Assembly: GCA_021323475.1 (NCBI GenBank)
Contig: JAJQJM010000002.1
Location: forward strand, 1 to 58,578
Direction: 5' to 3'
DNA from: Vampirovibrio sp.
Lineage (GTDB): Bacteria > Cyanobacteriota > Vampirovibrionia > Vampirovibrionales > Vampirovibrionaceae
Length of the DNA: 58,578 bases
The notes below the pieces were generated by a model. That model had not been told where the DNA came from, did not search any database, and saw only the letters and a program-made list of their open reading frames with translations. The translations under genes were made by a program, and so were the position numbers. This document shows positions 2,002-57,481 of this stretch, piece by piece (position 1 is the first letter of the stretch; every line of letters begins with the position of its first letter).

Positions 2002-2028
2002 AAAGACTTTACAGAAGGAACCCATGTT

Positions 2029-3348
2029 ATGACGGATACAGCACCCCCACCCGAACAAGAAACTTTGAAAAAGGGCAAATCGCCGCGTAGAAAAATGATG
2101 CCGTCCGGCAAGGGATTGTTAATCATCCTGGGTCTTTTTCTGCTGGCAACACTCGGGGGGGTGGCCTGGTGGCTACACAGTTCCCAATTTGAGCAAACCG
2201 ACAACGCGACCATTGAAGGCCATGTTCACCCGGTAAGCGCCAAAGTGGCCGGCAACGTGGTTAAGGTTCTGGTGGATGACAATCAGGCCGTCCAGCAAGG
2301 CCAATTAGTAGCTGTCATCGACCCCAGGGATTATCAAATTGCGCTCAGCGAGGCGGAGCATAACCTGGCAAACGCCAAAGCCCAAGCCAAAACCGCCTAT
2401 CAAAATATAGAGGTTTCCCGCAAGCAGGCCGCTTCCCAAATTACCCAGGCCAAAGGGGGTATTACCGCATCCCAAAGTAGCATTACTCAGGCGCGGCAAA
2501 CCGTGGCGGAAGCAAACGCCGCCGTGGAGCAGGCCCGGCAGATGGTGCAGGAACAGGAAACCAGCTACCAAAAAGCCTTGTCCGATTACAACCGCTACCG
2601 CAACGTGGATCCGGAAGCCATTTCCGCCCAGCAGTTGGAAACAGCGGCCACCAATGTCAGAAATGCGGAGACGTCCCGCAATGCGGCACAGGCATCGCTG
2701 GCACAGGCGCAGGCCCGCTTAAGGCAGAGCCGTTCCTCGGTTTCCGGCAGCGTGTCCAAGCTCACCCAATCGAAGGGGATAGCTCAGGGGGCGCAAGCGC
2801 AGGCGCTTCAGGTGGATGTGGTGAAATCCCAGTATGAAAGCGCCAAAACCGCCATTGCCGTTGCAGAGGATGCCGTCCGGCAAGCCAAGCTGAACCTGAG
2901 CTACACCCGCATCGTCGCACCTGCCTCCGGGCGTATTGGCAGAAAAATGCTGGAAATCGGCCAGCGGGTACAGCCGGGTGAGCCGCTGATGTCGGTAGTC
3001 AGCCCGCAAATCTGGATTGTGGCCAATTACAAGGAAACCCAACTGGAACGCATGCGCCCCGGTCAGCCGGTAGAAGTGCATGTGGACGCATTCCCCAGCC
3101 ACCGGTTTACCGGCCGGTTGGATAGTTTCTCCCCGGCGTCCGGTGCTCAGTTCGCCCTGCTCCCGCCGGAAAACGCGACCGGCAACTTCACCAAAATCGT
3201 GCAGCGCATTCCAGTCAAAATACTACTGGATGCCAAAAGCCTGGACGGTTATGAAGACTTACTGGTGCCCGGTATGTCCACCGTGGTCAGCGTCAAGGTC
3301 AGTGCGCCCGGCAATCGGGGCAAGCAAATAGCCACGCAGCGGCAGTAA
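2029..3348 (+). CDS. HlyD/EmrA-family membrane fusion protein
   Basis: The protein has one N-terminal TM helix, a long Ala/Gln-rich coiled coil, and a YTRIVAPASGRIG barrel motif. RBS AGAAGGAA lies upstream. Confidence 0.9.
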   Translation: MTDTAPPPEQETLKKGKSPRRKMMPSGKGLLIILGLFLLATLGGVAWWLHSSQFEQTDNATIEGHVHPVSAKVAGNVVKVLVDDNQAVQQGQLVAVIDPRDYQIALSEAEHNLANAKAQAKTAYQNIEVSRKQAASQITQAKGGITASQSSITQARQTVAEANAAVEQARQMVQEQETSYQKALSDYNRYRNVDPEAISAQQLETAATNVRNAETSRNAAQASLAQAQARLRQSRSSVSGSVSKLTQSKGIAQGAQAQALQVDVVKSQYESAKTAIAVAEDAVRQAKLNLSYTRIVAPASGRIGRKMLEIGQRVQPGEPLMSVVSPQIWIVANYKETQLERMRPGQPVEVHVDAFPSHRFTGRLDSFSPASGAQFALLPPENATGNFTKIVQRIPVKILLDAKSLDGYEDLLVPGMSTVVSVKVSAPGNRGKQIATQRQ

Positions 3349-3360
3349 AGGATATTCATC

Positions 3361-3978
3361 GTGACGCTTTCTGAAACTATGAAATTTGAAAAACCCAAAG
3401 CCAAAGACCGGATCTTAGACGCCGCCGCCAAAGTATTTGCGGAACAAGGCATCAAAGGAGCCACCACGCGGGAAATCGCCAAGCTGGCGGACGTGAATGA
3501 AACCACCCTCTTCCGGAATTTCCAAAGCAAGGAGCTATTGCTGAAAGCCGTAGTGGAAAAGGCTTCCGCAGAAATCACCGAAGCCTTGGTAGGCCCCGGC
3601 ATGAGCAACCACAACTTGCACAAGGATCTGCTGTATTACGCAGAGGCTTACAGCAAGGTGCTGGCAAAAAATGAGCCGATGGTGCGCATGTTTATCGGGG
3701 AAGCTTACCGGCAGAAAGAAGAAGCCAGCCTGATTGCCGTCAGTGCCTGGAAGCCGGTACGGGATAAGTTGATCGCCTATCTGGAAGACGCGAAGGCCAA
3801 CGGGCAGGTTCGGTCGGATTTGGACACGATCCAAGCCATTGATATGCTGAAAGGGATTCTGTTGGCGCATATGTTGCGCAAAGGACACGGCACCATTGAA
3901 TATTCCACCGACAGCTACCTGCAGACGGTGTTGGAAATTTTCATTCGGGGCATTGTCCCGCCACCCGCAACCCGTTAA
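3361..3978 (+). CDS. TetR/AcrR-family transcriptional regulator
   Basis: The N-terminal HTH reads ILDAAAKVFAEQGIKGATTREIAKLADVNETTLFRNFQSK. The start is GTG with AAAGGA upstream. Confidence 0.9.
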   Translation: MTLSETMKFEKPKAKDRILDAAAKVFAEQGIKGATTREIAKLADVNETTLFRNFQSKELLLKAVVEKASAEITEALVGPGMSNHNLHKDLLYYAEAYSKVLAKNEPMVRMFIGEAYRQKEEASLIAVSAWKPVRDKLIAYLEDAKANGQVRSDLDTIQAIDMLKGILLAHMLRKGHGTIEYSTDSYLQTVLEIFIRGIVPPPATR

Positions 3979-9524: not shown

Positions 9525-10486
9525 CTTTTTCCTCCCTCATTCATAAATTGATAAGACAATTCCCCGGATTTTGAACCGGCGTTTTGAATCATGGTGCCAA
9601 CCCCGTGATGTGTAAAAATTTCCAGCAACAAGGCGTGAGGCACCCGACCGTCCAGAATATGCACCGATTTCACCCCTTGGCAGACCGTTTGAATTGCACT
9701 CTGAACCTTGGGAATCATCCCGCCGGTAATTTGCCCGTCCAGAATGGCCTGCTCCGCTTCCGCCACCGTCAGGGTGGAAAACACCGATTCCGGATTTCCC
9801 GCATCCGCCAACACACCGGGCACATCGGTTAAATAAACCAGTTTTTCCGCCTGCATGGCCTGCGCAATGGCAACCGCCACTTCATCCGCATTAATGTTAT
9901 AGCTTTGGCCCTGCCTATCCATGCCCACGGACGCAATTACCGGAATCATCCCGCTTTCCAACAATACGTGAATCAACTTTGGGTTCACCTGTTGCACAGA
10001 ACCAACCCAGCCCAAATCCGGGCCATTGGTTAGCTTTTTTTGAGCCACTAACAAATGGGTATCTTTTCCGCACAGCCCTACCGCCTGAACGCCCAGCGTT
10101 TGCAATTGCGCCACGATGCGTTTATTGACCTGACCCACCAGCACCATGTCCACCACCGCAATGGCATCATCATCCGTGACTCTCAAGCCGGAAACAAACT
10201 GGGGCTGCTTGCCCAATTGCTGAAGGGTCCGGCTAATTTCCGGCCCGCCGCCATGCACCACAATCGGCTGGATGCCCACCGTCCGCATCAGGGCAATATC
10301 GCTCAGGATGCTTTGGGCGGCAGGGCCTTCCGCCATAACGCTTCCGCCATATTTCACCACCACGGTTTTACCGTGAAACGTCTGCAAATAAGGCAGCGCC
10401 TCAACCAGAATCTCCGCTTTCCTGGTAGCCAGCTCGCGAATTTGAGCCGGACTGGTTCCCTCTTTAATAGTCGCTTGTGCTGACAC
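9521..10486 (-). CDS. argB: acetylglutamate kinase
   Basis: The VVVKYGGS motif is present. The start is GTG, with AGGAG 7 nt upstream inside the end of argJ. Confidence 0.9.
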   Translation of the reverse strand: MSAQATIKEGTSPAQIRELATRKAEILVEALPYLQTFHGKTVVVKYGGSVMAEGPAAQSILSDIALMRTVGIQPIVVHGGGPEISRTLQQLGKQPQFVSGLRVTDDDAIAVVDMVLVGQVNKRIVAQLQTLGVQAVGLCGKDTHLLVAQKKLTNGPDLGWVGSVQQVNPKLIHVLLESGMIPVIASVGMDRQGQSYNINADEVAVAIAQAMQAEKLVYLTDVPGVLADAGNPESVFSTLTVAEAEQAILDGQITGGMIPKVQSAIQTVCQGVKSVHILDGRVPHALLLEIFTHHGVGTMIQNAGSKSGELSYQFMNEGGKR

Positions 10487-10489
10487 GTT

Positions 10490-11776
10490 TTAGCTCCTGT
10501 AGCTACTGTTAATGCTGACGTATTCATGGCTCAAGTCACAGCCCCAGGCCGTCGCCGTTTCGGCGCCCGCCTGCAAATCAACCTGGAATATAATGGTCTT
10601 TTCCTGCAAAACCGTTTTGGCTTGCTCTTCACAGAACGCCAGCGGCTTTCCGTCCTCCAGCATTAAAATACTGCCGGCCTCGCTGCATAGTTCCAAACGG
10701 ACGCATTCCGGATTGAACGCAACACCAGCAGCGCCCATTGCCGCCAGAACCCGCCCCCAATTGGCATCTTCCCCATATACGGCGGACTTGACCAGGCTGG
10801 AGGAAATTACCGATTTCGCCAACGTTTGGGCCACTATTTTAGTGGGTGCATGTTTAACGGTTACGGTTAAAAACTTGGTAGCCCCCTCACCATCCTTGGC
10901 AATGGCCTGGGCCAGATGCATATTCACCAAATCCAGCGCCTGCCTGAATTTGGCATAATTCACACCCTCGCAGCTAATGGGCGGATGATCTGCCATGCCG
11001 TTCGCCAGAACCGCTACCATGTCGTTGGTGCTGGTATCTCCGTCTACGGAAATCATGTGGTAACTGTCATCCACGCTCTCCTTCAGGGCTTTTTGCAGCA
11101 GATCCTGTTCAATGTTGGCATCCGTGGTAATAAAGGCCAGCATGGTCGCCATATTGGGATGAATCATACCGGAACCCTTCGCCATGGCACCTATGGTCAC
11201 CATAGTGCCGTCCAGTTCAAACTGCACCGCAATTTCTTTGGTAAACGTGTCCGTGGTTAAAATGGCTTCCGCCGCCTGAGTGCCTGAATTTTGGCTAGCT
11301 TCCAAGTTCCCGCCCAATTGAGCAAGACCCGTCAACAACGTATCAATTGGCAATGGCACGCCAATCACGCCGGTAGAGGCTACCAATACCTCCTCTGGCT
11401 GGCATTGGAGGCAGCTGCTTGCCATTTCCGCCATTTGCCGGGCATGAATCATGCCGTTTGCCCCGGTGCAGGCATTGGCGTTTCCGCTATTTACCACAAT
11501 GCCATAAACAGTATTGCCGCCATTCAATACCTGCTGACTCCAAAGCACCGGCGCCGCCTTGACCGTATTGGTCGTAAACACAGCCCCTACGACCGCAGGT
11601 TTTAAACTGGCGATCATTGCCAAATCTTTTTTCTTCTTTTTAATGCCCGCATGCAGACCGTTGGCCAGAAACCCTTGTGGTGCGGTAATGCCACCGGCAA
11701 TATAATGAAAGCAGTCCAGACCTTCGGCGCTTACCTGCTGGCCAAGATTGGGTAAATCCTGAATCGTGAGTGCCAT
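10490..11776 (-). CDS. argJ: bifunctional ornithine acetyltransferase / N-acetylglutamate synthase
   Basis: The self-cleavage site ATMLAFITTD is present. AGGA lies 8 nt upstream of the ATG. Confidence 0.95.
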   Translation of the reverse strand: MALTIQDLPNLGQQVSAEGLDCFHYIAGGITAPQGFLANGLHAGIKKKKKDLAMIASLKPAVVGAVFTTNTVKAAPVLWSQQVLNGGNTVYGIVVNSGNANACTGANGMIHARQMAEMASSCLQCQPEEVLVASTGVIGVPLPIDTLLTGLAQLGGNLEASQNSGTQAAEAILTTDTFTKEIAVQFELDGTMVTIGAMAKGSGMIHPNMATMLAFITTDANIEQDLLQKALKESVDDSYHMISVDGDTSTNDMVAVLANGMADHPPISCEGVNYAKFRQALDLVNMHLAQAIAKDGEGATKFLTVTVKHAPTKIVAQTLAKSVISSSLVKSAVYGEDANWGRVLAAMGAAGVAFNPECVRLELCSEAGSILMLEDGKPLAFCEEQAKTVLQEKTIIFQVDLQAGAETATAWGCDLSHEYVSINSSYRS

Positions 11777-14177: not shown

Positions 14178-16748
14178 ATGCAGCAGGATGCCAACGCCCT
14201 GGCCAAACGCTGGGGAATTTATATTGCTATGGCCGGAAGCATTACATTGGCGACTTCATTGCCGATGCTGGCCGCCCAACCCGTCAACACCATGAATGAT
14301 GGACGCATTGTTAAGGGTGGTGAATACTACAACACCGCAGACGGCAAAACAACCTTCACCAACTCCGGCTCCGGGGGACTTTGGGTGCAAGAAGGCGTTA
14401 CCGTCCGAGGGCTGGAAGCGAACGCCAATGGCAACCTGACCAATAATGGCGGCACCCTTCACTTTTTAGCCCCCGGCAGCGTGGTTCGGATTGACGGCAA
14501 GGTAGATGTCAGCGGTGTTCTAAGCGGCAACGGCGGCTATCTTGGCGACGGCGGAAAAGTCTTTGTGGATTCCGCCTTCCTGTACCAGAGCGGGCACATT
14601 TACGCCAATGGTAATAACGGCGGATTGGTGCAAATGAATGTCGGCTCCGCCGTGTTTGCTCCCGGCTCCAGTATTGAAGCCAAAGGGTTCGGCGGGAACG
14701 GAGGGGCCATCGCCATCAATTCCGACGGACTGGTCAAGATTTCCAACCGGGCATTACTGGACAGCTCTGGCCGGGTGGCGGGAACCTTCGACAGCAACCT
14801 GATTAACATTGAAGGCGGGGCTATCTACAATGCGGGCATTCTCCGCGCCGACGGCGTGGTACCCACCTCCGCATCCGGAGCAATTCCCGGCACCCGTGGG
14901 GGCACCATCCGGCTGGTGGCAACCGGAAACACCAATTTGAACCAAATGGCATCCACCTTGAATGACGCCGCCAACGTATCCCCGAATGACCCGGTGCAAA
15001 CGGCCACTATTTCCCAAACGCAAGCCCAGCAATTGAAAACATCCGCCAATCTCATGCGCATCGCCCAGGACGGCAGTATCGTGAATGAGGCTCCCAGCAG
15101 TCAAAACCCGACCGGCGGCCTGATCAGCGCAACCGGGAGCCAAGGGCCGGTGGCAGATAATAATGATTATATTCAAGATTCCACCCAGCGGGCCGGCGAT
15201 GGCGGCACCATCAGCCTTACCGCCATGAATCATGTGACCAATCGGGGCAAAGTAACCGCCAGCGGCGGAGATGGCCTGCTGGGCGACACCTCGACAAATG
15301 GGGGCAACGGTGGAGCGATTGTGGTACTTGCCAACGGCAGCATCATCAACAGCCAGGATACTCAGAGCGGCTATCGGGGCCGCTATAACGCCAATGGAGG
15401 CCGGGGCGGCAAAAGCCTGAACACAACCCCCGCATCCACGGGCGGCAATGGCGGCTTGCTGGCATTCAGCTATGGTGACCAAATGATTAACAGCGGCGTC
15501 ATTCAAGCCATCGGTGGCGTTGGCGGTGCGGGAGGCAGTGCGCCGACAGTGGGAACGGGCGGCGCTGGCGGGCAAGGCGGACTCATCGTGTTGAGCGGCA
15601 ACGCGAACCCTATTGGCGGTGGCTACCTGGATGCTAACGGCGGATGGGGTGGATCTGGCCTCGTGGGCGGAAATGGAGGCCTCGCAGGAACAATCGTGGC
15701 TCCGGTCCCCAATCAGTTAAGCCATGGCCAAATCGCATTTCAGTCCGACGGAGGAAAGGGGGCCAGCTTAGGCCAAAGTACACCGTCTCCCATTGGGCAG
15801 ACTCGACCTCTAAACCAAATCACGGCCGAGAACGAATTGCTGACCCACGGCGAAAATCTGATTCTGCTGACCCGAAACGAAGGCGGGTTACGCAAGTTTA
15901 CATTAAGAGATCGGGCGGAGAGCGCCAAAATACGCTCCGTGTTGGATCCGAAAGGCCTCGGTGTGGCAAGCCGGGCAATTGCGGCCAAGGAAGCTCCGGG
16001 CACTACCTTGCCCTACCGCAACCTCATTATTGGCAGCAGCGCGAATGACCTGTCATTGGTGCTAAACCGGGAACCCGTGTTTATCACCCCGGATTCCGAG
16101 GTGAACCTGTACCGGTTGAATACGTTAACAGTCCTGAATAACGGGTATACCACCAATACCTTCGGCTGGAGCGTGGGCGATCTCACCCACCAAACCGGCG
16201 GCAGAATCTCCATATTGGCCACGGGCGATATCGAGAACGGGACAGGCTTCAACACCTCCGGTCGGCTGTCCGGCGGCAGCATTAACCTGGCAAGCAAAAC
16301 CAACATCAGCAATTACGATGTGCTGGGAACCAGTAACCCGAACGATGGCACAGGCGTCCACGGCGGCAGCCTGATGATGAATGCCCGCCAAAGCCTGTTC
16401 AATGCGGGATTCAGGACAATCAGCACCAGCGGCGGCATGATTGGCGGAACCCAACGTTTTAATGCCAATGGCGATTTCCTGAACCTGGGCGACTTTTATT
16501 CCATAGCCTACAACACGGCGCCCGGTACACCTATTACCGGGGGAAATATTCATGTTCGGGCAGGCACCGTGTACCAGGGCGGTAGCGACGACTACAACCC
16601 CGTCTTTGTGCAGGCCAACGCCATGAGCAATAACCAGGGCTACGGCGGATACGTCTCCATCCATGCACAAACGGTGGATAACACCCTTAGCCAGATTGAG
16701 GCCAACGGCAGCCAGCAAAACGGAACCGTGATTACCGGATCGCCTTAG
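14178..16748 (+). CDS. secreted glycine-rich parallel beta-helix repeat protein (adhesin/Pmp-like)
   Basis: The N-terminus looks like a Sec signal (IYIAMAGSITLATSLPMLAAQP). GGAI motifs recur (GNGGAIAINS, FDSNLINIEGGAIYNAG, GNGGAIVVLANG), and there is a long GGxGG-rich tract. RBS AAGGAAGGA lies upstream. Confidence 0.7.
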   Translation: MQQDANALAKRWGIYIAMAGSITLATSLPMLAAQPVNTMNDGRIVKGGEYYNTADGKTTFTNSGSGGLWVQEGVTVRGLEANANGNLTNNGGTLHFLAPGSVVRIDGKVDVSGVLSGNGGYLGDGGKVFVDSAFLYQSGHIYANGNNGGLVQMNVGSAVFAPGSSIEAKGFGGNGGAIAINSDGLVKISNRALLDSSGRVAGTFDSNLINIEGGAIYNAGILRADGVVPTSASGAIPGTRGGTIRLVATGNTNLNQMASTLNDAANVSPNDPVQTATISQTQAQQLKTSANLMRIAQDGSIVNEAPSSQNPTGGLISATGSQGPVADNNDYIQDSTQRAGDGGTISLTAMNHVTNRGKVTASGGDGLLGDTSTNGGNGGAIVVLANGSIINSQDTQSGYRGRYNANGGRGGKSLNTTPASTGGNGGLLAFSYGDQMINSGVIQAIGGVGGAGGSAPTVGTGGAGGQGGLIVLSGNANPIGGGYLDANGGWGGSGLVGGNGGLAGTIVAPVPNQLSHGQIAFQSDGGKGASLGQSTPSPIGQTRPLNQITAENELLTHGENLILLTRNEGGLRKFTLRDRAESAKIRSVLDPKGLGVASRAIAAKEAPGTTLPYRNLIIGSSANDLSLVLNREPVFITPDSEVNLYRLNTLTVLNNGYTTNTFGWSVGDLTHQTGGRISILATGDIENGTGFNTSGRLSGGSINLASKTNISNYDVLGTSNPNDGTGVHGGSLMMNARQSLFNAGFRTISTSGGMIGGTQRFNANGDFLNLGDFYSIAYNTAPGTPITGGNIHVRAGTVYQGGSDDYNPVFVQANAMSNNQGYGGYVSIHAQTVDNTLSQIEANGSQQNGTVITGSP

Positions 16749-18816: not shown

Positions 18817-19914
18817 ATGTCTCAGTTATCGCCAATTCAATCACGCGTTTTTGCGGCCCAATCACGGCCTTTATCAACAAGACTACACTCACCATCGCCT
18901 CGTTTCGGCTGCCGCCTGACTGGCGCCATGAGCACCACGGGCTCCACAGACGGGGATCAGTTCGTCAAAAGCATGACCGTCAACTTACCCGAAATCGCAG
19001 ACAAAAAACATGCCCTAACGGAAGGGGTTCATGCGGCGGCGGCCTTACTAAGGAATGATCAGTCACACGGCTGGGGTTACGCGCATTTTACGGTGAGCCA
19101 ATCACCAGGCACAGGCATCACGCTGAAGCAATTCAAGAGCCCCCTAAGCATTCTGCGCGATCCTCAATACCAGGCTCAGCGCCGCTCCTTCCAAACCGAC
19201 ACGCTTTCATCCGGCATTGCCCACGTCCGTAAAGCCACCGGGGGAACCGACATCCGAAAGGAGAACGCTCATCCTTTCAGCCTGAAGCTGGATAATACGG
19301 AATGGACCTTTGTACATAACGGCCGTTGGGACAATGCGCTTTCTCCAGCCATTCAGGCGCGCTTAAAGCAAGATCCGGTCTTTACGCCCAAGGGCACGAC
19401 AGATTCCGAGCATGCCTTTCTGGCCTTGATGCAGGCCATCCGCACACAACTGGGCACCTTGAATACTGAGCAAGTCGGCCAAGACAAAATGACACGCGCG
19501 TTTGCAGACGGCATCCGTCAGCTCACCCAGGAGCCTAGCCCATTCGTGACCGCTACCATTCCGGATTCCAACCTGAAGATTGGCGGTAAAGTCCGGGTTG
19601 GCCCAGCCTACAACTTTGTAGCCAACGATGGAGACCTAATGATAGCGTACCGTAACGGGCAAAGCCTATACTTGGGCGTCCAACGGGATGACAAAGGAAA
19701 AGTCGTTGCCCACGGGGTAGCCACAGAGCCGACTGCGCTACCGGGCGTGGTTTGGTTTGATGTGCCCGAGAACACGCTGGTAGTTATTTCCAAACAGAAA
19801 ACCACCGGGCAGTCCGCGGCCCAGGTGTTACCGCTGGAAAGCATTTCTCCGCTAAAAAAAGATTCTTACCCTCAAATGTTCTATAAATTCTTGCAAAGAT
19901 TTTCTGCAAGCTAA
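18817..19914 (+). CDS. class II (Ntn) glutamine amidotransferase, YafJ-like, with a 31-aa N-terminal propeptide
   Basis: CRLTGAMS aligns with the MCELLGMS N-terminus of YafJ-type enzymes. Other matching segments are HGWGYAHF, AHVRKATGG..ENAHPF, FVHNG and TDSEHAF. The catalytic Cys is residue 32. Confidence 0.8.
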   Translation: MSQLSPIQSRVFAAQSRPLSTRLHSPSPRFGCRLTGAMSTTGSTDGDQFVKSMTVNLPEIADKKHALTEGVHAAAALLRNDQSHGWGYAHFTVSQSPGTGITLKQFKSPLSILRDPQYQAQRRSFQTDTLSSGIAHVRKATGGTDIRKENAHPFSLKLDNTEWTFVHNGRWDNALSPAIQARLKQDPVFTPKGTTDSEHAFLALMQAIRTQLGTLNTEQVGQDKMTRAFADGIRQLTQEPSPFVTATIPDSNLKIGGKVRVGPAYNFVANDGDLMIAYRNGQSLYLGVQRDDKGKVVAHGVATEPTALPGVVWFDVPENTLVVISKQKTTGQSAAQVLPLESISPLKKDSYPQMFYKFLQRFSAS

Positions 19915-48471: not shown

Positions 48472-50886
48472 ATGATTAACCTCACCACGTTTTCGGGCGT
48501 CAATCGTACGCAGCTACAAACACGTAAAAAAACCGAATCCAAACAGAAACCGGAAGCCCAGTCTCACGCTTCAACCGGCCCTAAAACCCTATTGGCAAAG
48601 CCCTCTGCCGGGCTTGCAAAAGTCTACTTTGGCGGCGTCAATCTGTCGGATGCCATTAAAGGCAGCAGCGAAGTCGCCAAACCCCAGCAACTCAAATCCG
48701 TGATGTCCATTCAGGACTATGTGGACACCATTGAGCAGCATCCACTGTTGCTAAGAAACACCGCCCAATATGCCCAGGACATGATCAACCGGGAAGGTGT
48801 CCGTAAAAAAACCAAGTACGGACGCGACATTCTGGAATACGATTTTTTTACTCACCCTCAAAACCCCGAAATGAAAGGCTTAAAAGGCAATCAGGGCTCC
48901 ATTAACGATGTGATGATGCACATTCGTGCCGCCGCCAGACGGCAGGATTTGGGCAAAAAACCCATTGTACTCATGGGGGGCCCCGGTTCCGGCAAAACCA
49001 GCATCGGTGATTTGATGGTGGACGGCTACGTGCGTTACAGCAAAACCGATGAAGGCGCTCGTTACGCCTCCAAATTGGTGAATCTGCCTGAAGATTTACG
49101 GATGGGTGAGGAATACGTAGAAGAAACCCTGGCCGATCCGTTGCTGTTTTTACCTCAGGAAATTCGTAAACAGGTGGTCAATTCCGCCAAACCCAAATTT
49201 GAAAAATTAAAACAGGAAGTCACCAAAGCCGAGGCGCAGAATGGCTCCGTTCGTCCCAATCTGTACGATTATGAAGTGGGCATTGAAGGCGACTTAACGC
49301 CGAAAACTCAATACATTATGAAACATCTGCAAAACATGTACCTGGATCAGGCCATTAAAATGCAAGGGCTGGACCGGGATGAACTGGAATCCGAGCCTGG
49401 CCAAAAACGCCTGGTAGACCTAAAGCGGCAGGCCTATCACAAAGCGCTGAAAAATCATTTGCAGGTCTATAAGTTCGAATACAATCCCAACGCGGTACCG
49501 GGTGGTATCGGCGTGTTTTCCGCAACGGATTCCAAAACGCTGAACACTGCCAAAATTAATGGCCAGGTCAACATGGTACGGCTGATGGATCTGCCGGAAA
49601 GCGATCCCCGCCGGTACGACTATGTGGACGGAGCCGCGTTCCGGGCCAATCGGGGCGTATTCCGCCTAAAAGAAATGCACAAAAACCCCGAAGCCTTCTA
49701 TCCGTTATTGCTGGACTTGGCACAAAGTCAGTTGATTGAGGTAGAAAGCGGCAACGCCACGGTACACAGTCTGATTCTGGCGGATTCCAACTTCCCGGAA
49801 CTGATTGAAAAGAAGGGCAAAGACGTGCTGACTGCCGCCATGAAGCGCCTGGATCACATTTATGTCACTCACCCGCTGGAGTTGTCTGCGGAAAAAGAAA
49901 TCCAGCACAGCCTGTTCGCGGACTTTGAAAAAGCAACGGGCGCACACGGCAAAAAAGGCCACGTAGCGCCACACACCAAAGACATTGCCGCATTGCTTGC
50001 CGTCATGTCCCGTCTCACAGTTCCAGAAGACAAATTGACGGAAGGTCCCGCGTTCCTGGCCAAAAAAGCCGCCGCCTATAACGGCGACGTGGTGGAAGGC
50101 ATTGAAGAGCAGGAAGTGAACGAATGGTATGAAAAAGGCCAAAAGGCTGATGATATCGAGCAGAAAGAAGGAATGGACGGCCTGTCGGTTCGGGAGATGC
50201 AAACCCTGACTAACCTGGTGACCAACGACCTGAACGTGCGTGATCTGAATTCCATTGACGGGTATGGTTATCTGCGCATTGTGCGCGATGTGCTGGAAAA
50301 GAACCGGCTGACCCTTTCCGATGAGATCAAGGAAAAGTCCCTGAACCTGCTGGGTGTGGCCGAACGGCAACTGGATGATCGCGTCAAGGGTGACGTGACC
50401 GAGGCATTGGCCGGTGATCCGTCTTATATGCAAAACATTTTTGATGCCTACCTGACCAACGTGATTGCCGAGAAGCGGGGCAAACGGGTGAGAGATCCGC
50501 TGACCAGCGAAATGGTGCCACCCGATAAGGACTTGATGGAAGACATTGAAAAACGCATGGGCCTGACGACTTATAACGATCGGCGCCAGTATCGGGATAG
50601 CCTGGCGGCGCGGGTCGGGATGCTAACCATGGAAGGACGTAAATACGAACTGGATAATGATCCGAAACTGAAGAAAGCGATTCTGGATCGGGCATACGCC
50701 AGAACGGTGGATCGGATTGACTCCAAAGTGCTGCTGACGTCTCATCCGAACCAGCGGGAAAAAGAACAACAAAACACGCTGGTGCAGCGCTTAATTGCCA
50801 GAGGATATAACGAGCTTACGGCCAATAACGCGCTGGCTCGCGTCAGCATGTTGGCCAAACGCGATCCGAAAATCCTGAACTCGTAG
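48472..50886 (+). CDS. prkA: PrkA-family AAA+/serine-kinase-like protein, paralogue 1 (804 aa)
   Basis: Walker A is GGPGSGKTS. FRANRGVFRLKEMHKNPEAFYPLLLDLAQ aligns with the YeaG segment CRANQGIMEFVEMFKAPIKVLHPLLTATQ. GAAGGGG RBS lies upstream. Confidence 0.85.
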   Translation: MINLTTFSGVNRTQLQTRKKTESKQKPEAQSHASTGPKTLLAKPSAGLAKVYFGGVNLSDAIKGSSEVAKPQQLKSVMSIQDYVDTIEQHPLLLRNTAQYAQDMINREGVRKKTKYGRDILEYDFFTHPQNPEMKGLKGNQGSINDVMMHIRAAARRQDLGKKPIVLMGGPGSGKTSIGDLMVDGYVRYSKTDEGARYASKLVNLPEDLRMGEEYVEETLADPLLFLPQEIRKQVVNSAKPKFEKLKQEVTKAEAQNGSVRPNLYDYEVGIEGDLTPKTQYIMKHLQNMYLDQAIKMQGLDRDELESEPGQKRLVDLKRQAYHKALKNHLQVYKFEYNPNAVPGGIGVFSATDSKTLNTAKINGQVNMVRLMDLPESDPRRYDYVDGAAFRANRGVFRLKEMHKNPEAFYPLLLDLAQSQLIEVESGNATVHSLILADSNFPELIEKKGKDVLTAAMKRLDHIYVTHPLELSAEKEIQHSLFADFEKATGAHGKKGHVAPHTKDIAALLAVMSRLTVPEDKLTEGPAFLAKKAAAYNGDVVEGIEEQEVNEWYEKGQKADDIEQKEGMDGLSVREMQTLTNLVTNDLNVRDLNSIDGYGYLRIVRDVLEKNRLTLSDEIKEKSLNLLGVAERQLDDRVKGDVTEALAGDPSYMQNIFDAYLTNVIAEKRGKRVRDPLTSEMVPPDKDLMEDIEKRMGLTTYNDRRQYRDSLAARVGMLTMEGRKYELDNDPKLKKAILDRAYARTVDRIDSKVLLTSHPNQREKEQQNTLVQRLIARGYNELTANNALARVSMLAKRDPKILNS

Positions 50887-50898
50887 GGGACTGAATGG

Positions 50899-52884
50899 AT
50901 GATGCCCACAGTGATTCCTCCCGGTTACGGGAGTATTCCTAAACCCGGCGTTGCAGGCATTGCCAAGACGCCCAAAAAGCCGAAGCCCGTGCCGCATGGT
51001 ATGGAGCAAACCCATGTCAGCCCGCCTCGTACAGGTGGAATGGACGCGCTTTCCGCCTACAATCGCACACGGTTGAAATCGGTTCATCCAAGATTTAAAG
51101 GCTCGGAGGGGGTAGGGCGTTATCCGTTTGATCAGGTGGATATACGGCTGGGCACACACCCTGATACCCCCTATTTGAACAAGCTGGATCACTGGATGCG
51201 CAAGGTCTGGGAAGAGGCCACCAAACCGCGCCCCGGCTTTGAAAACGGCTGGCTGCAACCGATGGATACCCTGTTTCAGGTATCAAATCAGGTGGACCTG
51301 ATGGAGGCTGCCGCCCGGAGCGGTTTCCCCACCCGCTACCGCCATTGGTCCTGGGGCCAGGATTTCAACAATCAGTACCAGCGCCAGCGGTTCGGCCTGG
51401 GACGCTTGTATGAAATGGTCATCAACACCAACCCGTCCTATGCGTTCTTATATGATCGCAACCCGGTTTACGCCCAAAAGGTGGTAATGGCCCACGTATT
51501 GGGGCATACGGACTTTTTCAGAAACAACGTCATGTACTCGGAAACCAACCGGAACATGGTACGGGTTATGGCCGACCACAAGGCCAAAATTGAGCGTTAT
51601 TATCAGGATCCACGCCTGTCCCGTACAACGCAAGGCGGAGTGCATCCGGTAGAAAAATTCCTGAACAAATTCAACGCGTTGGAATGGCTGGTGGACATGA
51701 ACGCGTTATCGCCCCCACCGTTGGAATCGGAAAAAGCGCCTGAACACCGGGAAGAGGACGACTTCGGCAAAGTCGGTGTTAATACTAAAAAATTGGGTGT
51801 CGCCCCTTGGATGCAGGACTTTCTGTATACCAACAAGGCATGGCAAAAGTACCGGAATGATACGATTCAGGAAGGGGACGCCACCCATGCCAAAACGCTG
51901 AAGCAGCCCACCCGCGATATTCTGGGTTTTCTGGTGGAAAACGCCAAGGTGTTGCATCCGTGGCAGCAGGATATTTTACGCACCCTGCGGGAGGAGTCGT
52001 ATTACTTCGTTCCGCAGGTGCGCACCAAACTGATGAACGAAGGCTGGGCCACCTTCTGGCACCATAAGCTGATGAACGATTGCCCCAGCCTGATCGACGA
52101 ATCCGAAACCACGGATATCGCCAAAAAGATGGCTGGGGTTGAAGCGCCTTCCCAGAATGGGATTAACCCATACCAGGTCGGGTATGCTATTTTCCAAAAT
52201 ATTTACGATCGGGCCGCATACGGATTGGATGATTTTGACACCACCTTCCAGCCCAATAAGACCATTAAATACAAAGACCTGCGGGACCGGATGGAGCATA
52301 CTAAGCCCAACGAAGAAGCCGGATTGAAAAAAGTGCTGGACGTTCGAAAACAGTATAACGATGTGGAATTCATTCGCACGTTCTTCACGCCGGAAGTCGC
52401 CGAAAAGCTGGGCATGGTAGTGACCAACGAACGAGAGGAATGGGATTCCCGAATGGGTCAGCGGGTCAAAGTGAAATTCGTGGAGTCGGACGATTTCAAC
52501 CAATTGAAATCGATGATTCTGGCCCAGTACCAGAACATGTTTCCCACGCTTAGTTTAGTAGACGCCAACCACAATAATCAGGGTGAATTGCTCATCAAGC
52601 ATGAAAACACGGTACAGGATTTGGACTTACAGGATACAAAAGAAACGCTGGCCGTGCTGAATGAATTCTGGGGACATCCCATTCACCTGGACACCATGTT
52701 TGAGGTGGAGGGGGATGTGCCGCCACCAAGGCCGAACCCATGGGGCTTTGGCTTTATTGAGCCGGAGGTTCCGGAGTTTAAGCGCCAACCGGTTCGGCTG
52801 TCTTATAAAAACGGGAAAATGCAGATGTTTACCTTGTCCAAGGACGGTAAGCCCCTCAAAAACATTACGGATAAATATTTATAA
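50899..52884 (+). CDS. spoVR: SpoVR/YcgB-family protein (661 aa)
   Basis: AHVLGHTDFFRNN and YYFVPQVRTKLMNEGWATFWH are present. GGGGA RBS lies upstream. Confidence 0.85.
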   Translation: MMPTVIPPGYGSIPKPGVAGIAKTPKKPKPVPHGMEQTHVSPPRTGGMDALSAYNRTRLKSVHPRFKGSEGVGRYPFDQVDIRLGTHPDTPYLNKLDHWMRKVWEEATKPRPGFENGWLQPMDTLFQVSNQVDLMEAAARSGFPTRYRHWSWGQDFNNQYQRQRFGLGRLYEMVINTNPSYAFLYDRNPVYAQKVVMAHVLGHTDFFRNNVMYSETNRNMVRVMADHKAKIERYYQDPRLSRTTQGGVHPVEKFLNKFNALEWLVDMNALSPPPLESEKAPEHREEDDFGKVGVNTKKLGVAPWMQDFLYTNKAWQKYRNDTIQEGDATHAKTLKQPTRDILGFLVENAKVLHPWQQDILRTLREESYYFVPQVRTKLMNEGWATFWHHKLMNDCPSLIDESETTDIAKKMAGVEAPSQNGINPYQVGYAIFQNIYDRAAYGLDDFDTTFQPNKTIKYKDLRDRMEHTKPNEEAGLKKVLDVRKQYNDVEFIRTFFTPEVAEKLGMVVTNEREEWDSRMGQRVKVKFVESDDFNQLKSMILAQYQNMFPTLSLVDANHNNQGELLIKHENTVQDLDLQDTKETLAVLNEFWGHPIHLDTMFEVEGDVPPPRPNPWGFGFIEPEVPEFKRQPVRLSYKNGKMQMFTLSKDGKPLKNITDKYL

Positions 52885-52919: not shown

Positions 52920-54944
52920 ATGACCAGCATGACGCCAACCAGTTCCGCCACATCGCTGTTGCGGCCAGCCATTGAAAAACGCCTCCACACAAAGTCGGTT
53001 AAATTCAAAGGTGATGAGCCTGCCAAACCGATCGAACAAACATCAAACGATCGATTTTCCGCAACGTCAACAGATTCCGTAACCGTCGTTGCAAAACCGG
53101 AGCCTCATCCCCATACGCCTCAGGCCTCGCCTTGGCTGAAAGTGCTGGATGACATGCTGGAAAATGCGCATGCGGAACAAGAGGAAATCAACGGCATTCC
53201 GGTGGCGGAACTGATTTATATGCGGGAAAAAATCCGTCGGGCACCCAAAATCGCCCCCGTTGACGAGCAAGGCAAGGTTCGAGAATTACACCCCTGCCCG
53301 TTACCGGGTCAGCCTTCCCAACTGTGGGCCATGCTGAGCCGGGACACCATTGGCTCCGATCACCCGGATTCCAAACGGTTCTGGGATATTATCGACGGCA
53401 AAAACACGCCGAAAGATATGCTGGATAAAATTTCCAAACGGCAGGTTAAAATCGGCCCCAAGGGGCAAATCAGCTTTCCCTCCCCTAATATCAAGCGCCC
53501 GCGGATTTGGTGGGGACAGCCAGGCTCCCAGCAAAGCAAACGGGGACAGCAAGGTAAAAACGGTCAGCCGGGCCAAGGCCAGGGAATCGGCTCACATCCC
53601 GGTAAAAAAGCGGGCGACGTGATCGGCAAACGACCGGCCAAGGGCGGCAAGGGAGCCGGGCGAGAAGGCGAAGCCGGAGAAGGCGCAGGCGATTACCCGA
53701 AAGAACTATGGACGCCGCCGGTGCCGCGTTCGCAGGTAGCCAAGCTATTACAATCAGAATGGGGGCTGCCCTTCATCGAACCGCGCGGCAAGGGAAAAAT
53801 GAACCAGTTTCAGGAGTTTTGGGATCAAACCACTACGACGCCGCCCAATCTGGTTGAAAAATACCCGACGTTGAAAAACGCCATTCAACGTTCATTCGCC
53901 AAAGCCTGGTACGACAAGCCAATGAGCATGACCGAGCGCATCCGCAACGGCATGCATCCGGGCTCAGCGGCCATTCCAATCAAAGAAATACAGATTCAGG
54001 GCAACACCCTGGTGGGCAAAAAAACATTGGACAAAGCGATGGAGGAATTTCAGGGAAAAGACCTGACTTACGAGGATTTAACCAAAATCCTGACCCGTCT
54101 GGATCAAAAATATCAGGCGGCCGGTTACCCAACATCCAAGGCCATTATTCCGCCGCAACCACTGGATTCCCAGAAGCTGGTGGTTGATGTGCGCGAAGTG
54201 CGTGACACGTTTAATCCCAGGGATATTCAGGTTCACTCCAAAGATAAAGTTCGCATTGCCGCCCGTGTGGCGCCCAAGCCGGTGGCTAAAACGGCCATTC
54301 TCTACATTATGGATGTATCCGGTTCGGTCAGTAACGACATGAAGGAAATGGCACGGGTGCAGAATTATTTTCTGGATACGCACCTGATGTACCAGTATGG
54401 GTTGGTAGCCGCCCAACTGGCCAACGAAAAATACGATGACAAAAAACACTTCGGGCAAGGCGTGGTACGCCGGTTTATCGTGCATACCGATGGAGCCGAG
54501 GAAACCACCGAGGAGGAATTTTACACCACCGGGCAATCCGGCGGCACCAAAATTTCTTCCGGCTTTAAATTAGCCAAGGACATTATTGAAAAAGACTTCC
54601 CAAAGGATGAATGGAACATTTACGTGTTCTACCAGGGTGACGGAGACAATTACCAAAGCGATAACGACACCAGCATCAAACTGATGAAAGATCTGCTGGA
54701 GGACGGTGTCAATATGATTGGCTATACCCATTTAGCCCCGTATTACGAAGGCAGCACCTCCAACTCCGACGGGCTGAACCGTTGGAATTTTTACGGAGAG
54801 GTTCAGAAGCATCTGGGCGATCGCCAAAACGTTAGAACATCCATTCTGCATCGCCCGGAAATCCAGGAGTACAAGCAATCGATTCAGCGTCTGTTGGAAG
54901 AAAGCAAAAGTGGAGAAACCAAGAGCGGAGCGAAAAAGTCATGA
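52920..54944 (+). CDS. yeaH: YeaH/YhbH (DUF444, vWA-like) family protein with inserted POTRA-like module (674 aa)
   Basis: A Gly-rich GQPGQGQGIGSHPGKKAGDV..GEGAGDY tract is followed by the MIDAS-like IMDVSGSV and by GQSGGTKISS and YQGDGDN. Confidence 0.85.
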   Translation: MTSMTPTSSATSLLRPAIEKRLHTKSVKFKGDEPAKPIEQTSNDRFSATSTDSVTVVAKPEPHPHTPQASPWLKVLDDMLENAHAEQEEINGIPVAELIYMREKIRRAPKIAPVDEQGKVRELHPCPLPGQPSQLWAMLSRDTIGSDHPDSKRFWDIIDGKNTPKDMLDKISKRQVKIGPKGQISFPSPNIKRPRIWWGQPGSQQSKRGQQGKNGQPGQGQGIGSHPGKKAGDVIGKRPAKGGKGAGREGEAGEGAGDYPKELWTPPVPRSQVAKLLQSEWGLPFIEPRGKGKMNQFQEFWDQTTTTPPNLVEKYPTLKNAIQRSFAKAWYDKPMSMTERIRNGMHPGSAAIPIKEIQIQGNTLVGKKTLDKAMEEFQGKDLTYEDLTKILTRLDQKYQAAGYPTSKAIIPPQPLDSQKLVVDVREVRDTFNPRDIQVHSKDKVRIAARVAPKPVAKTAILYIMDVSGSVSNDMKEMARVQNYFLDTHLMYQYGLVAAQLANEKYDDKKHFGQGVVRRFIVHTDGAEETTEEEFYTTGQSGGTKISSGFKLAKDIIEKDFPKDEWNIYVFYQGDGDNYQSDNDTSIKLMKDLLEDGVNMIGYTHLAPYYEGSTSNSDGLNRWNFYGEVQKHLGDRQNVRTSILHRPEIQEYKQSIQRLLEESKSGETKSGAKKS

Positions 54945-57481
54945 TTACCTTACCGCCATCCCTGAACGTAATACCAGCTAAAAAGCAGGTCCGGAAATCC
55001 CTTGGTACTCCACCGACACCTATCTCGAATGCCCCTCGGCCAAGTTCGCGCACTTTGCAAAAGGACACGGTGCAGTTTTCCGGGCAACACCCGAAAGCTG
55101 ATGCCGCCGAGCAAACCAAGGCGGGTCAATATGTAGATAATCTGCTGGATCAATGCGATCAGCAGACCACTGTTCAACGAATGACGCTGCGGGATTTCCT
55201 GCTGAACTCCAAACTGGAGCCCAAGCGTTATTTACCGACCGCCAGTTCATATGTGCTGGATGCATTCGATTATTACGATAAGCCAGGCGGACCGCAGCAG
55301 GTAACCGTGTATGGCGAGCCCATGCGTCGTTTCAATATTATGAACACGCCCTGGAACAATCACCTGTCGAACCCAGCCCGTATCTACGGTCATGAGCCAA
55401 CCGTCAATCGCATATGGGAAATTTTGCGCTCGTTTAAACAACAACCGAACGCGGATCGGGGTATTGCGCTGTTTGGCCCGCATGGCAGCGGCAAAAGCGT
55501 TATTGCCAAATCCCTGATGACGGGCGTGGAAAATTTTTCCAGGCAAGATGAGGGGGCCTTATGGACCTATTCCTTTGTGTTTCCGGACGGACAAAAAGTA
55601 AAGGCCCAGCCCAAGGATGAGGCTGATATCTGGATGCAGGACGTGGCAGATGGTAAAACGCTGATGGAGCCGGATAAAATTGCGGCCCAATTGATGGCGA
55701 ACCTCAATTTAAATCCTATTTTCTTGTTGCCTCCTCAGCAACGCACCGCCTTTTTACAGGATTTGAAAAAAGAAGGCAAAATTGAGCCCGATTTTAATAT
55801 TGACTATTATCTGAAAGCGAACCTGGAAGGCAATGCCCAGCGCATTTTAAACAAGTTGCACCACTTGTATAGCGAAGATCCCAAAAAATTCCAGAAAACG
55901 ATGGAGCACATCCAGGTGGAGCGCTGGACCATGTCCGCACAGGACTACCGAGGACTGGTGGAAGTGCCGGCCTCCCGCAACCCGGACGCGGTGATGCGGG
56001 AAATTCCCGGTGAGCATCCGCTGGCCAAAGCGCCGGATTTGGTAAAAACTGCCGGGAAACGGGCATTGGAAGGACTCATGCCTCGCGCCCATCGCGGTAT
56101 TTTTTACATGGATGATTTCGGCCGTAACGGCATGCCGTTCGATCATTTGCTGATGCCGCTGGAAACGGGAGAAGTGACCATTCAAGAATTGCACGGACCT
56201 GGCATTACCAAGGAATTATTGGACTTTGTGCCCTTGTTGTCCGTAAACCCGGAAGTGTTGGAACGCACCAAACAGCACGGCAATTTTGACGCATTGGAGC
56301 AGCGCATGCTGTTTGTTCCGGTTCCCTTTGAGCGCCGCTATAAAGTGGAATCCCAGGTCATGGCGCCAATTTTAAACCATGCCAAGGCCCTTGGTAAAAA
56401 AATCGCGCCGGACACCCTGGAATCCTTTGCCTTGTGGGTGGCCATGAGCCGCATGTTCCCCATCGATAAAAATTACCAGCCCTACCAGGAAATCAGCAAA
56501 AACAACAAGGATTTTGCATCCGCGCTGAGCAAGCTGACGCCATTAGGCAAAGCCCTGCTGTACCAGGGCGAGGCTGTTCCCGGCCTGTGCGCGGATGAGC
56601 AGGAAGCCCTGGTGGAAAACCTGAAAACCATCGCCGGAGAGCATAACCAATCTTTGGGAGAAACGGAATTTACGCTCTATGAAGGTGGGGTCGGCATGTC
56701 GAATCGGGCGGCCACGAACGTGCTGAAACGAGTAACAGCCCGGCACGACAATGAGCCTATCAGTTTTTTGGACATGTTTGAGGCCATTGCCAGGTACGCC
56801 GGCAATAAACCCCAATACGAAATGAAGCGCGCCCAAATTCTGAAGGACAAGGGTAAAACCATTCCATTTCAATCCGGGCTGGAACTGCTGAGAGAGGTTG
56901 AAGATTTTCAGCGGCAGAAATTCATGAAGCAGCTGAAGGATGCCTTGGGCATGTACCAGGACCCGTCCGTTTACGCCCAGCGCATCCAGCAATACGGGGA
57001 TCATATCGCCGCCATGCAGGAAGGAAAGTCGGTGCCTCCGCGTTCCCAAGTGGACGGTGACCCCAAACCCAGCCGGCGATTGATTCTCAGTTTCGAGCAA
57101 ACCGCTCACCCGGATAGGCGATTAACTGATAGCGAGCGCAAAGCGTATCGTACCGATTTTTTGGCCCGCGCAATCGATTGGGACACGGATCTGCCGGATG
57201 AGGAGAACGTCACCCAGATCTATCAGAATGAAATGAGTCGGTTACGCACGAAAGACGAGCAGGAAAACAAGCAATACTTGACCGAGTTCCGCAATAACGT
57301 CAAAATCCTGCTCAAGGACCCGCAAGCCTTTGAGCCCCAAAAGGGCCTGCCTTCCACCCAGAGGTTGGAAAATGCGCTAAAAACGCTGGGCGATATGGGC
57401 TACAGCCCGGAAGTGCTGCCGAAAATTCTGGATTGGGCCTTGGAACACCGTTACGTGGCCGAACAGGTCAAATCGCAATAG
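54941..57481 (+). CDS. prkA: PrkA-family AAA+/serine-kinase-like protein, paralogue 2 (846 aa)
   Basis: Walker A is GPHGSGKSV. AHRGIFYMDDFGRNGMPFDHLLMPLETGE aligns with the PrkA core. The start forms an ATGA overlap with the yeaH stop. Confidence 0.8.
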   Translation: MITLPPSLNVIPAKKQVRKSLGTPPTPISNAPRPSSRTLQKDTVQFSGQHPKADAAEQTKAGQYVDNLLDQCDQQTTVQRMTLRDFLLNSKLEPKRYLPTASSYVLDAFDYYDKPGGPQQVTVYGEPMRRFNIMNTPWNNHLSNPARIYGHEPTVNRIWEILRSFKQQPNADRGIALFGPHGSGKSVIAKSLMTGVENFSRQDEGALWTYSFVFPDGQKVKAQPKDEADIWMQDVADGKTLMEPDKIAAQLMANLNLNPIFLLPPQQRTAFLQDLKKEGKIEPDFNIDYYLKANLEGNAQRILNKLHHLYSEDPKKFQKTMEHIQVERWTMSAQDYRGLVEVPASRNPDAVMREIPGEHPLAKAPDLVKTAGKRALEGLMPRAHRGIFYMDDFGRNGMPFDHLLMPLETGEVTIQELHGPGITKELLDFVPLLSVNPEVLERTKQHGNFDALEQRMLFVPVPFERRYKVESQVMAPILNHAKALGKKIAPDTLESFALWVAMSRMFPIDKNYQPYQEISKNNKDFASALSKLTPLGKALLYQGEAVPGLCADEQEALVENLKTIAGEHNQSLGETEFTLYEGGVGMSNRAATNVLKRVTARHDNEPISFLDMFEAIARYAGNKPQYEMKRAQILKDKGKTIPFQSGLELLREVEDFQRQKFMKQLKDALGMYQDPSVYAQRIQQYGDHIAAMQEGKSVPPRSQVDGDPKPSRRLILSFEQTAHPDRRLTDSERKAYRTDFLARAIDWDTDLPDEENVTQIYQNEMSRLRTKDEQENKQYLTEFRNNVKILLKDPQAFEPQKGLPSTQRLENALKTLGDMGYSPEVLPKILDWALEHRYVAEQVKSQ

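Follow-up and report, generated by a model that had tools for sequence, protein, structure and literature searches.

A POTRA domain of the two-partner-secretion type inserted in a YeaH (DUF444) homologue of Vampirovibrio sp.

The DNA analysed here (the window) is a stretch of 58,578 nucleotides from Vampirovibrio sp. (contig JAJQJM010000002.1 of assembly GCA_021323475.1, positions 1 to 58,578, forward strand), and it encodes a long homologue of YeaH, a DUF444 protein, into which a POTRA domain of the TpsB/ShlB type has been inserted. POTRA_2 and DUF444 are both known families, and their combination in one protein is a new domain architecture. The PrkA/YeaG-YeaH-SpoVR/YcgB module to which YeaH belongs is widespread, has been tied to stress and sporulation, and is biochemically obscure. 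The gain of a domain of the polypeptide-binding type beside the MIDAS, the metal-ion-dependent adhesion site, of this protein suggests that YeaH is a client-binding adaptor, and we lean, by a little, towards a reading in which the inserted POTRA would act in the cytoplasm as a second peptide-binding surface of a von Willebrand factor A (vWA) adaptor. The gene, the insertion and the domain are placed as follows.

52920..54944, + strand: yeaH/yhbH homologue (DUF444), long form, 674 aa (Pfam DUF444, E 2.7e-41).
53919..54242, + strand: whole inserted module, YeaH residues 334-441 (gap in the alignment with canonical 370-aa DUF444 proteins).
53973..54200, + strand: POTRA_2 (TpsB/ShlB-type) domain, YeaH residues 352-427 (Pfam PF08479, AlphaFold2, Foldseek, signature residues).

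The translation of the last of these segments, residues 352-427 of the 674-aa open reading frame (ORF), is exactly the 76-residue string that had been likened to the POTRA_2 domain of ShlB/FhaC-type proteins in an initial annotation made from the sequence alone. The Pfam domains that pass their cutoffs in the whole protein are DUF444 (PF04285, 142.5 bits against a cutoff of 27, E 2.7e-41), POTRA_2 (PF08479, E 7.6e-16, 58.2 bits where the curated cutoff is 24, with an alignment spanning profile positions 2-74 of 76) and the general POTRA model PF07244 (25.1 bits against 21.3, E 2.8e-5), while the isolated segment scores 64.2 bits against PF08479. Since both POTRA profiles, which had been put forward as a check, exceed their curated cutoffs, the resemblance is not due to chance. 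Among sequences of solved structures in the PDB, the closest match of the single segment is the N-terminal POTRA of Pseudomonas aeruginosa TpsB4 (2mhj, E 0.0017), and a profile built from 12 orthologues matches CdiB (residues 52-130) and TpsB4 (residues 16-94), both with E ~3e-5. Six positions show at least 90% conservation across 103 POTRA_2 relatives (G361, Y398, G402, P411, Q413 and E426), and the window protein retains every one of them.

The predicted structure agrees with this assignment. A full-length AlphaFold2 (AF2) model built from a 31-sequence alignment places, according to DSSP, strand beta1 at residues 352-360, helix alpha1 at 367-377, helix alpha2 at 384-400, strand beta2 at 408-410 and strand beta3 at 419-424, which is the beta-alpha-alpha-beta-beta order that the initial annotation had proposed to look for. 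Block means of the predicted local distance difference test score (pLDDT) across the POTRA are 75-92 in this model; a domain-only model (residues 338-442) has a mean pLDDT of 82 and a predicted template modelling score of 0.71, and both models are of monomers. When the fold was compared with the PDB using Foldseek, the 50 best matches listed were all POTRA domains (from CdiB, TpsB4, BamA, cyanobacterial Omp85, FhaC, TamA and Toc75), including 2mhj (template modelling score 0.66, root-mean-square deviation 2.4 Å over 77 columns) and CdiB 6wim (E 6.6e-4). Profile, sequence match to solved POTRAs, predicted fold and fold search thus all bear out the proposed likeness. Residues 352-427 are a genuine TpsB/ShlB-type POTRA domain, nearest in kind to the N-terminal POTRA of two-partner-secretion transporters, and the assignment is as secure as computation allows, the Pfam match lying far beyond chance.

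The setting of this domain is rare. When 1.84 billion representative proteins were searched exhaustively with HMMER, the POTRA segment gave 293 matches at E up to 0.001, and the best of these outside the YeaH clade (P0001 and the fragment P0031) belong to proteins of 750-900 aa with two or three POTRA_2 domains and a ShlB barrel. We surveyed the Pfam domain content of the best 103 relatives: ShlB is present in 65 and Omp85 in 33, the remainder being short fragments, and DUF444, vWA or AAA domains occur in none of the 103, nor was any of them found outside the context of outer-membrane transporters. One candidate for a second cytoplasmic POTRA (P0106, with an AraC-type helix-turn-helix, POTRA_2 and a barrel) was rejected as a fused gene call, the transporter part of which keeps its own signal peptide. 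The POTRA-bearing families named in the literature retrieved here are Omp85/TpsB and FtsQ, all of them envelope proteins (PMC4104836), and our literature search found no published link of POTRA with DUF444, or of Melainabacteria with PrkA; the remark in the initial annotation that a POTRA in a signal-less DUF444 protein is unfamiliar was well founded.

The host protein is itself unusual. Its best NCBIfam equivalog score is far below the cutoff (NF003711, 150.6 bits against 388), as is that of TIGR02877 (125 against 468), so that it belongs to a divergent DUF444 subfamily. The remaining parts of the protein, with the evidence for each, are listed below.

52920..53120, + strand: disordered N-terminal extension, residues 1-67 (pLDDT ~30; absent from canonical DUF444 proteins).
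53121..53357, + strand: clade-specific N-terminal helical region, residues 68-146 (alignment, AF2; neither the sister clade nor canonical DUF444 proteins have it).
53475..53717, + strand: Gly/Gln/Pro/Lys-rich low-complexity linker, residues 186-266 (pLDDT <50, sequence).
54243..54899, + strand: vWA/MIDAS domain, residues 442-660 (Foldseek of the full-length model; invariant MIDAS residues).
54312-54326, + strand: MIDAS motif D465-x-S467-x-S469 (alignment).

The helical region ('PWLKVLDDML...INGIPVAELIYMREKIRR') has no Pfam match and is modelled with helices at residues 71-81 and 95-106 (pLDDT 74-80). The C-terminal half of the protein has a vWA fold, with Foldseek matches to anthrax-toxin-receptor and integrin I domains at E-values as low as 5e-7, and the MIDAS residues D465, S467, S469, T543 and D574/D576 are all invariant. 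The POTRA segment lies between the conserved 'GLPFIEPRG' (in which L283 and P284 are invariant) and the MIDAS motif, just where the initial annotation had put an insertion of about 76 residues. This position is confirmed, but the true length, measured by alignment with canonical 370-aa DUF444 proteins, is about 108 residues: the module follows Y332-D333, precedes D442, and consists of a linker with 'RIxNGMH' (invariant among the orthologues), the POTRA and a second linker. The segment is missing from canonical DUF444 proteins, which answers the question, raised with the original description, of whether the insertion is part of the usual fold. No ShlB/Omp85 barrel was found in YeaH in a Pfam search at E up to 10. 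A reverse-strand ORF inside yeaH (54078-54536) was treated as a shadow ORF.

All of the sequences compared come from metagenome assemblies. In a large protein database drawing on ENA, JGI, NCBI and Logan, POTRA_2 occurs together with DUF444 in 13 protein clusters that are 64-77% identical, one of which is a fragment, and the architecture is confined to a small uncultured lineage. A close relative is present in a single named genome, a Candidatus Melainabacteria metagenome-assembled genome (MAG); in that sequence (CABHPA010000030.1, ~10001-11582) the yeaH frame appears broken, with the POTRA in a 199-codon open frame, which may reflect an assembly frameshift or a pseudogene. The metagenomic origin of the data, together with the apparently fragmented yeaH of this MAG, raises the question of whether the insertion is an assembly chimera or the dead remnant of a fused TpsB gene. 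We find this scarcely credible, as the same in-frame architecture recurs in the 13 clusters from independent samples, and as the module is well conserved, is folded with confidence by AF2, and is accompanied by neither a barrel remnant nor a signal peptide; distribution and conservation effectively refute it.

Over 12 orthologues, pairwise identity averages 0.64 in the POTRA; the corresponding values are 0.23 (N-terminal tail) and 0.79 (vWA domain). Neither GC content nor skew is anomalous at the POTRA segment, and its closest non-YeaH relative is just ~29% identical; the insertion is therefore old, and the composition gives no indication of recent horizontal acquisition. Nor was a donor POTRA gene found nearby, the profile of the module having matched yeaH genes alone in the window and in all the loci that were fetched.

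The nearest relatives without a POTRA form a sister group of three clusters (~584 aa, 34-37% identical to the POTRA-bearing proteins) in which DUF444 is the only Pfam domain, and beyond these are canonical proteins of 370 aa. The yeaH genes of this sister clade (L006, 9001-10752; L007, 7101-8852) carry an insert of ~115 residues exactly at the POTRA site. It is helix-rich in appearance, with repeated 'F..AL..FK.AL' segments; that it might be a degenerate POTRA was ruled out, since the hhalign probability is 0.2% and there is no Pfam match. Because an unrelated insert occupies the same position, the site looks like a permissive hot spot for variable accessory modules.

The tolerance of this site for a wholly different insert is one of the grounds for considering a purely structural or oligomerising role for the POTRA, as a rigid spacer or by contacting a folded partner (the second PrkA, PrkA2, or SpoVR, for instance), with no binding of unfolded or extended polypeptides. 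A second PrkA paralogue is present in both clades of long-form YeaH, so that the insert and an altered architecture of the complex may have evolved together, and the identity of the POTRA is below that of the catalytic and vWA core. On the other hand, the full set of POTRA_2 signature residues has been kept despite long divergence, and in the envelope-protein studies retrieved POTRAs act in polypeptide binding or in protein-protein contacts (PMC4104836, PMC4490367). We regard a purely structural role as possible but unlikely; it departs from the peptide-binding role only in what kind of ligand is bound, and our data do not tell the two apart.

The yeaH gene lies in a cassette of four genes on the forward strand, of which the other three are listed here.

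48472..50886, + strand: prkA1, 804 aa (Pfam PF08298, AAA_PrkA, and PF06798, PrkA C-terminal domain).
50899..52884, + strand: spoVR/ycgB homologue, 661 aa (Pfam PF04293, E 2.6e-92).
54941..57481, + strand: prkA2, divergent second PrkA paralogue, 846 aa (Pfam PrkA, E 1.4e-11; AAA_PrkA, E 7.6e-9).

The first two gaps of the cassette are 12 and 35 bases, and the stop codon of yeaH overlaps the start codon of prkA2 as ATGA, from which the two genes are predicted to be translationally coupled. The product of prkA2 also gives a weak match to the Mg_chelatase AAA family in Pfam. The same four genes stand in the same order in all five complete loci of the POTRA clade that were examined (the window, L004, L008, L009 and L010), with variable flanking genes, and in the sister clade they are followed by two ClpP-family genes (L006, 13549-15590). 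The second PrkA paralogue is common to both long-form clades, whereas canonical operons lack it and have a single prkA/yeaG (10.1101/072470). None of the four cassette proteins matched an anti-phage defence system in PADLOC, and no Rfam match to an RNA element was found in the window.

By hydropathy analysis and motif inspection, all four proteins are free of signal peptides, twin-arginine motifs and membrane segments: the maximum Kyte-Doolittle hydropathy over 19 residues is ~1.0 in each, there is no N-terminal hydrophobic core, and the first 70 residues of YeaH reach a maximum of 0.77 over 12 residues. The description of the host as a signal-less DUF444 protein thus holds, and because it has neither signal peptide nor membrane helix and two of its partners are AAA+ ATPases, we infer that YeaH and its POTRA are cytoplasmic. 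It could be argued instead that the unusual N-terminal extensions, which share a motif across all of the cassette proteins, are unconventional export signals and that the POTRA is periplasmic, as would befit a domain whose described members belong to envelope families (PMC4104836). This seems to us highly improbable, given not only the missing export features but also the presence in the cassette of two AAA+ proteins that require ATP, the addition of two ClpP-family proteins in the sister cassette, and the lack of consistently adjacent secretion genes, the flanks varying between loci.

In outlining how the POTRA may function we draw on four published observations. YeaG, YeaH and YcgB show conserved cofitness in six bacteria and behave as one unit (10.1101/072470); PrkA of Bacillus subtilis is an ATP-dependent Lon-like protease (PMC9512850); vWA proteins of the NorD type, which comprise an N-terminal domain, a disordered linker and a vWA domain, are adaptors between an AAA+ ring and its target and bind via the MIDAS (PMC9976466); and in FhaC the second POTRA holds the substrate, at a site designed as one of beta-augmentation (PMC4490367). 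We propose that the ancestor of one small lineage gained a POTRA with flanking linkers in a loop ~30 residues upstream of the vWA/MIDAS strand, and that purifying selection has maintained the domain since then. By analogy with AAA+/vWA pairs, YeaH would be the vWA adaptor of an AAA+ machine formed by PrkA1/PrkA2 and SpoVR, and the POTRA would provide it with a second, sequence-tolerant binding surface. There an extended polypeptide of a client or of a partner subunit may be bound as an added strand (beta-strand augmentation), which would feed or tether it to the PrkA1/PrkA2-SpoVR-YeaH machine. The analysis shows what the domain is, how it is predicted to fold, where it is inserted, how well it is conserved, its restriction to one clade and its operon setting; location in the cytoplasm, binding of peptides and action as an adaptor are inferred, and we consider the proposal as a whole somewhat more likely than not.

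Several observations weigh against this proposal. The most conserved residues of the module are those that define the POTRA_2 fold, and the edge that would bind a ligand is not singled out. A POTRA is dispensed with in the sister clade and in all canonical systems, and is therefore accessory and not central. The vWA-adaptor analogy is drawn from MoxR-type systems and PrkA belongs to a different AAA+ family, while the cytoplasmic placement is itself deduced from features of the protein sequences.

The N-terminal extensions of the cassette proteins, which canonical homologues lack, share a motif of approximately phi-(R/K/Q/H)-F-(G/S/K/T/A)-G (where phi stands for the first position, V or P in the window). 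Motif search places it in the four proteins as follows.

48622-48636, + strand: prkA1 tag, V-Y-F-G-G.
51088-51102, + strand: spoVR tag, P-R-F-K-G.
52998-53012, + strand: yeaH tag, V27-K-F-K-G31.
55070-55084, + strand: prkA2 tag, V-Q-F-S-G.

The initial annotation had described a (V/P)-x-F-x-G motif shared by YeaH and its operon partners, and this proves to be real: the tag occurs within the first 90 residues of every one of 26 cassette proteins from six loci (the window, L004, L008, L009, L010 and L006), compared to 2.9 on average and at most 10 of 26 proteins when N-termini are shuffled with preserved composition, and at a density ~14 times that of the remaining protein sequence, although these statistics are indicative only, the pattern having been defined after the data had been seen. 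The further suggestion, that the POTRA is the docking site for these peptides, fares less well. In its fullest form it would have the POTRA act as receptor for the tags of all four cassette proteins, adding each as a beta strand and so assembling the complex, and it is in keeping both with the position of the tag in disordered extensions that are missing from canonical homologues and with the known binding of extended segments by POTRAs (PMC4490367). However, all six cassette proteins of the sister-clade locus L006, including the two ClpP-like proteins, carry the tag, often in two or three copies, although the YeaH insert there is unrelated to POTRA. The tag is thus independent of the POTRA, and since the sister-clade YeaH has none, a receptor common to both clades cannot be the POTRA. 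The full-length AF2 model also leaves the tag of YeaH itself undocked, within residues 1-67 that have pLDDT ~30. A role as tag receptor is, in our view, distinctly improbable.

The same motif was observed in a protein encoded outside the cassette. A class-II glutamine amidotransferase (GATase_4) at 18817-19914 of the window (+ strand) has a propeptide of ~31 residues that ends in 'PRFG' just ahead of the predicted catalytic Cys ('PRFG|CRLTG'), and its orthologue in L004 (14726-15772, - strand), 1.2 kb downstream of prkA2, has 'NAPRFG|CRLEG'. As the cassette tag is the same motif, it may mark a cleavage site, and these sequences hint that it is a propeptide or processing site; such a processing or recognition signal of wider use again speaks against the POTRA as tag receptor. 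The role of the tag may be that of a tag proper, a propeptide or an assembly signal. A more far-reaching version of the proposal would unite both features, the cytoplasmic POTRA being a client- or subunit-recruiting arm of a Lon-like PrkA-SpoVR-YeaH machine, the components of which are marked by a tag that the machine reads or processes; we put this forward as a speculation that is rather unlikely to hold in full.

Among other genes of the window, that at 14178-16748 (+ strand) encodes a protein of 856 aa for which Pfam gives no match; it has what looks like a signal peptide, is rich in Gly and Asn in its N-terminal region, and might be a secreted beta-helical protein. In L004 the cassette is immediately preceded by the gene for its orthologue (1021-3627, + strand, 50% identical), which itself follows a TolC-like OEP gene, an adjacency that does not recur in other loci. 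A large unannotated protein is also encoded upstream of the cassette in L009.

A conserved POTRA in a soluble vWA protein coupled to AAA+ ATPases represents the reuse of this module in an ATP-driven setting that is, by our reasoning, cytoplasmic. To our knowledge the POTRAs described so far all act beyond the cytoplasmic membrane and keep hold of unfolded polypeptides there without ATP, and should this one indeed serve as a cytoplasmic recruiting arm it would be the first to work outside the cell envelope. The presence of such a domain hints that the YeaH module handles extended polypeptides, and if so would offer a first molecular handle on the role of YeaG, YeaH and YcgB. The POTRA-bearing YeaH can be viewed as a natural experiment on YeaH function, with a reach limited by the small size of the uncultured lineage in which it is found.

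The protein can be compared with several known systems. The TpsB transporters (TpsB4/LepB of P. aeruginosa, 2mhj; CdiB, 6wim; FhaC) have POTRAs of the same PF08479 family with the same beta-alpha-alpha-beta-beta fold, and share with the window YeaH the signature G-N-T ... Y...G-[YF] ... P-x-Q ... E. Unlike them, YeaH has a single POTRA in the middle of the protein, with no second POTRA, no 16-stranded ShlB/Omp85 barrel and no signal peptide. FtsQ is anchored in the membrane and its POTRA lies outside the cytoplasm. The FtsQ/DivIB POTRA (PF08478) is the sole POTRA family named beyond Omp85/TpsB in the literature retrieved, and it serves protein-protein assembly and not transport (PMC4104836); the window POTRA is of another subfamily, with no PF08478 match in the Pfam scan.

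We know of no POTRA reported in AAA+/vWA adaptors of the NorD, CbbO, ViaA or BchD type. In the pairs NorQ/NorD, CbbQ/CbbO, RavA/ViaA and Mg-chelatase BchI/BchD, as in the window, an AAA+ gene adjoins the gene for a protein in which a disordered linker joins an N-terminal domain to a C-terminal vWA/MIDAS domain (PMC9976466). The comparison is one of functional analogy, for PrkA falls in another AAA+ group and its C-terminal region is Lon-like (PMC9512850).

A further likeness is to YeaH/YhbH of the PrkA(YeaG)-YeaH-SpoVR(YcgB) module, with which the window protein has in common DUF444, a vWA fold with intact MIDAS, and an operon that includes PrkA and SpoVR. Unlike that module, the window has the gene order prkA-spoVR-yeaH followed by a second, divergent prkA. 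Whereas canonical YeaH/YhbH proteins are ~370-430 aa in length, the window protein reaches 674 aa, and what it has in addition is a 146-residue N-terminal extension, the 108-residue POTRA module and a segment of ~19 residues in the vWA domain.

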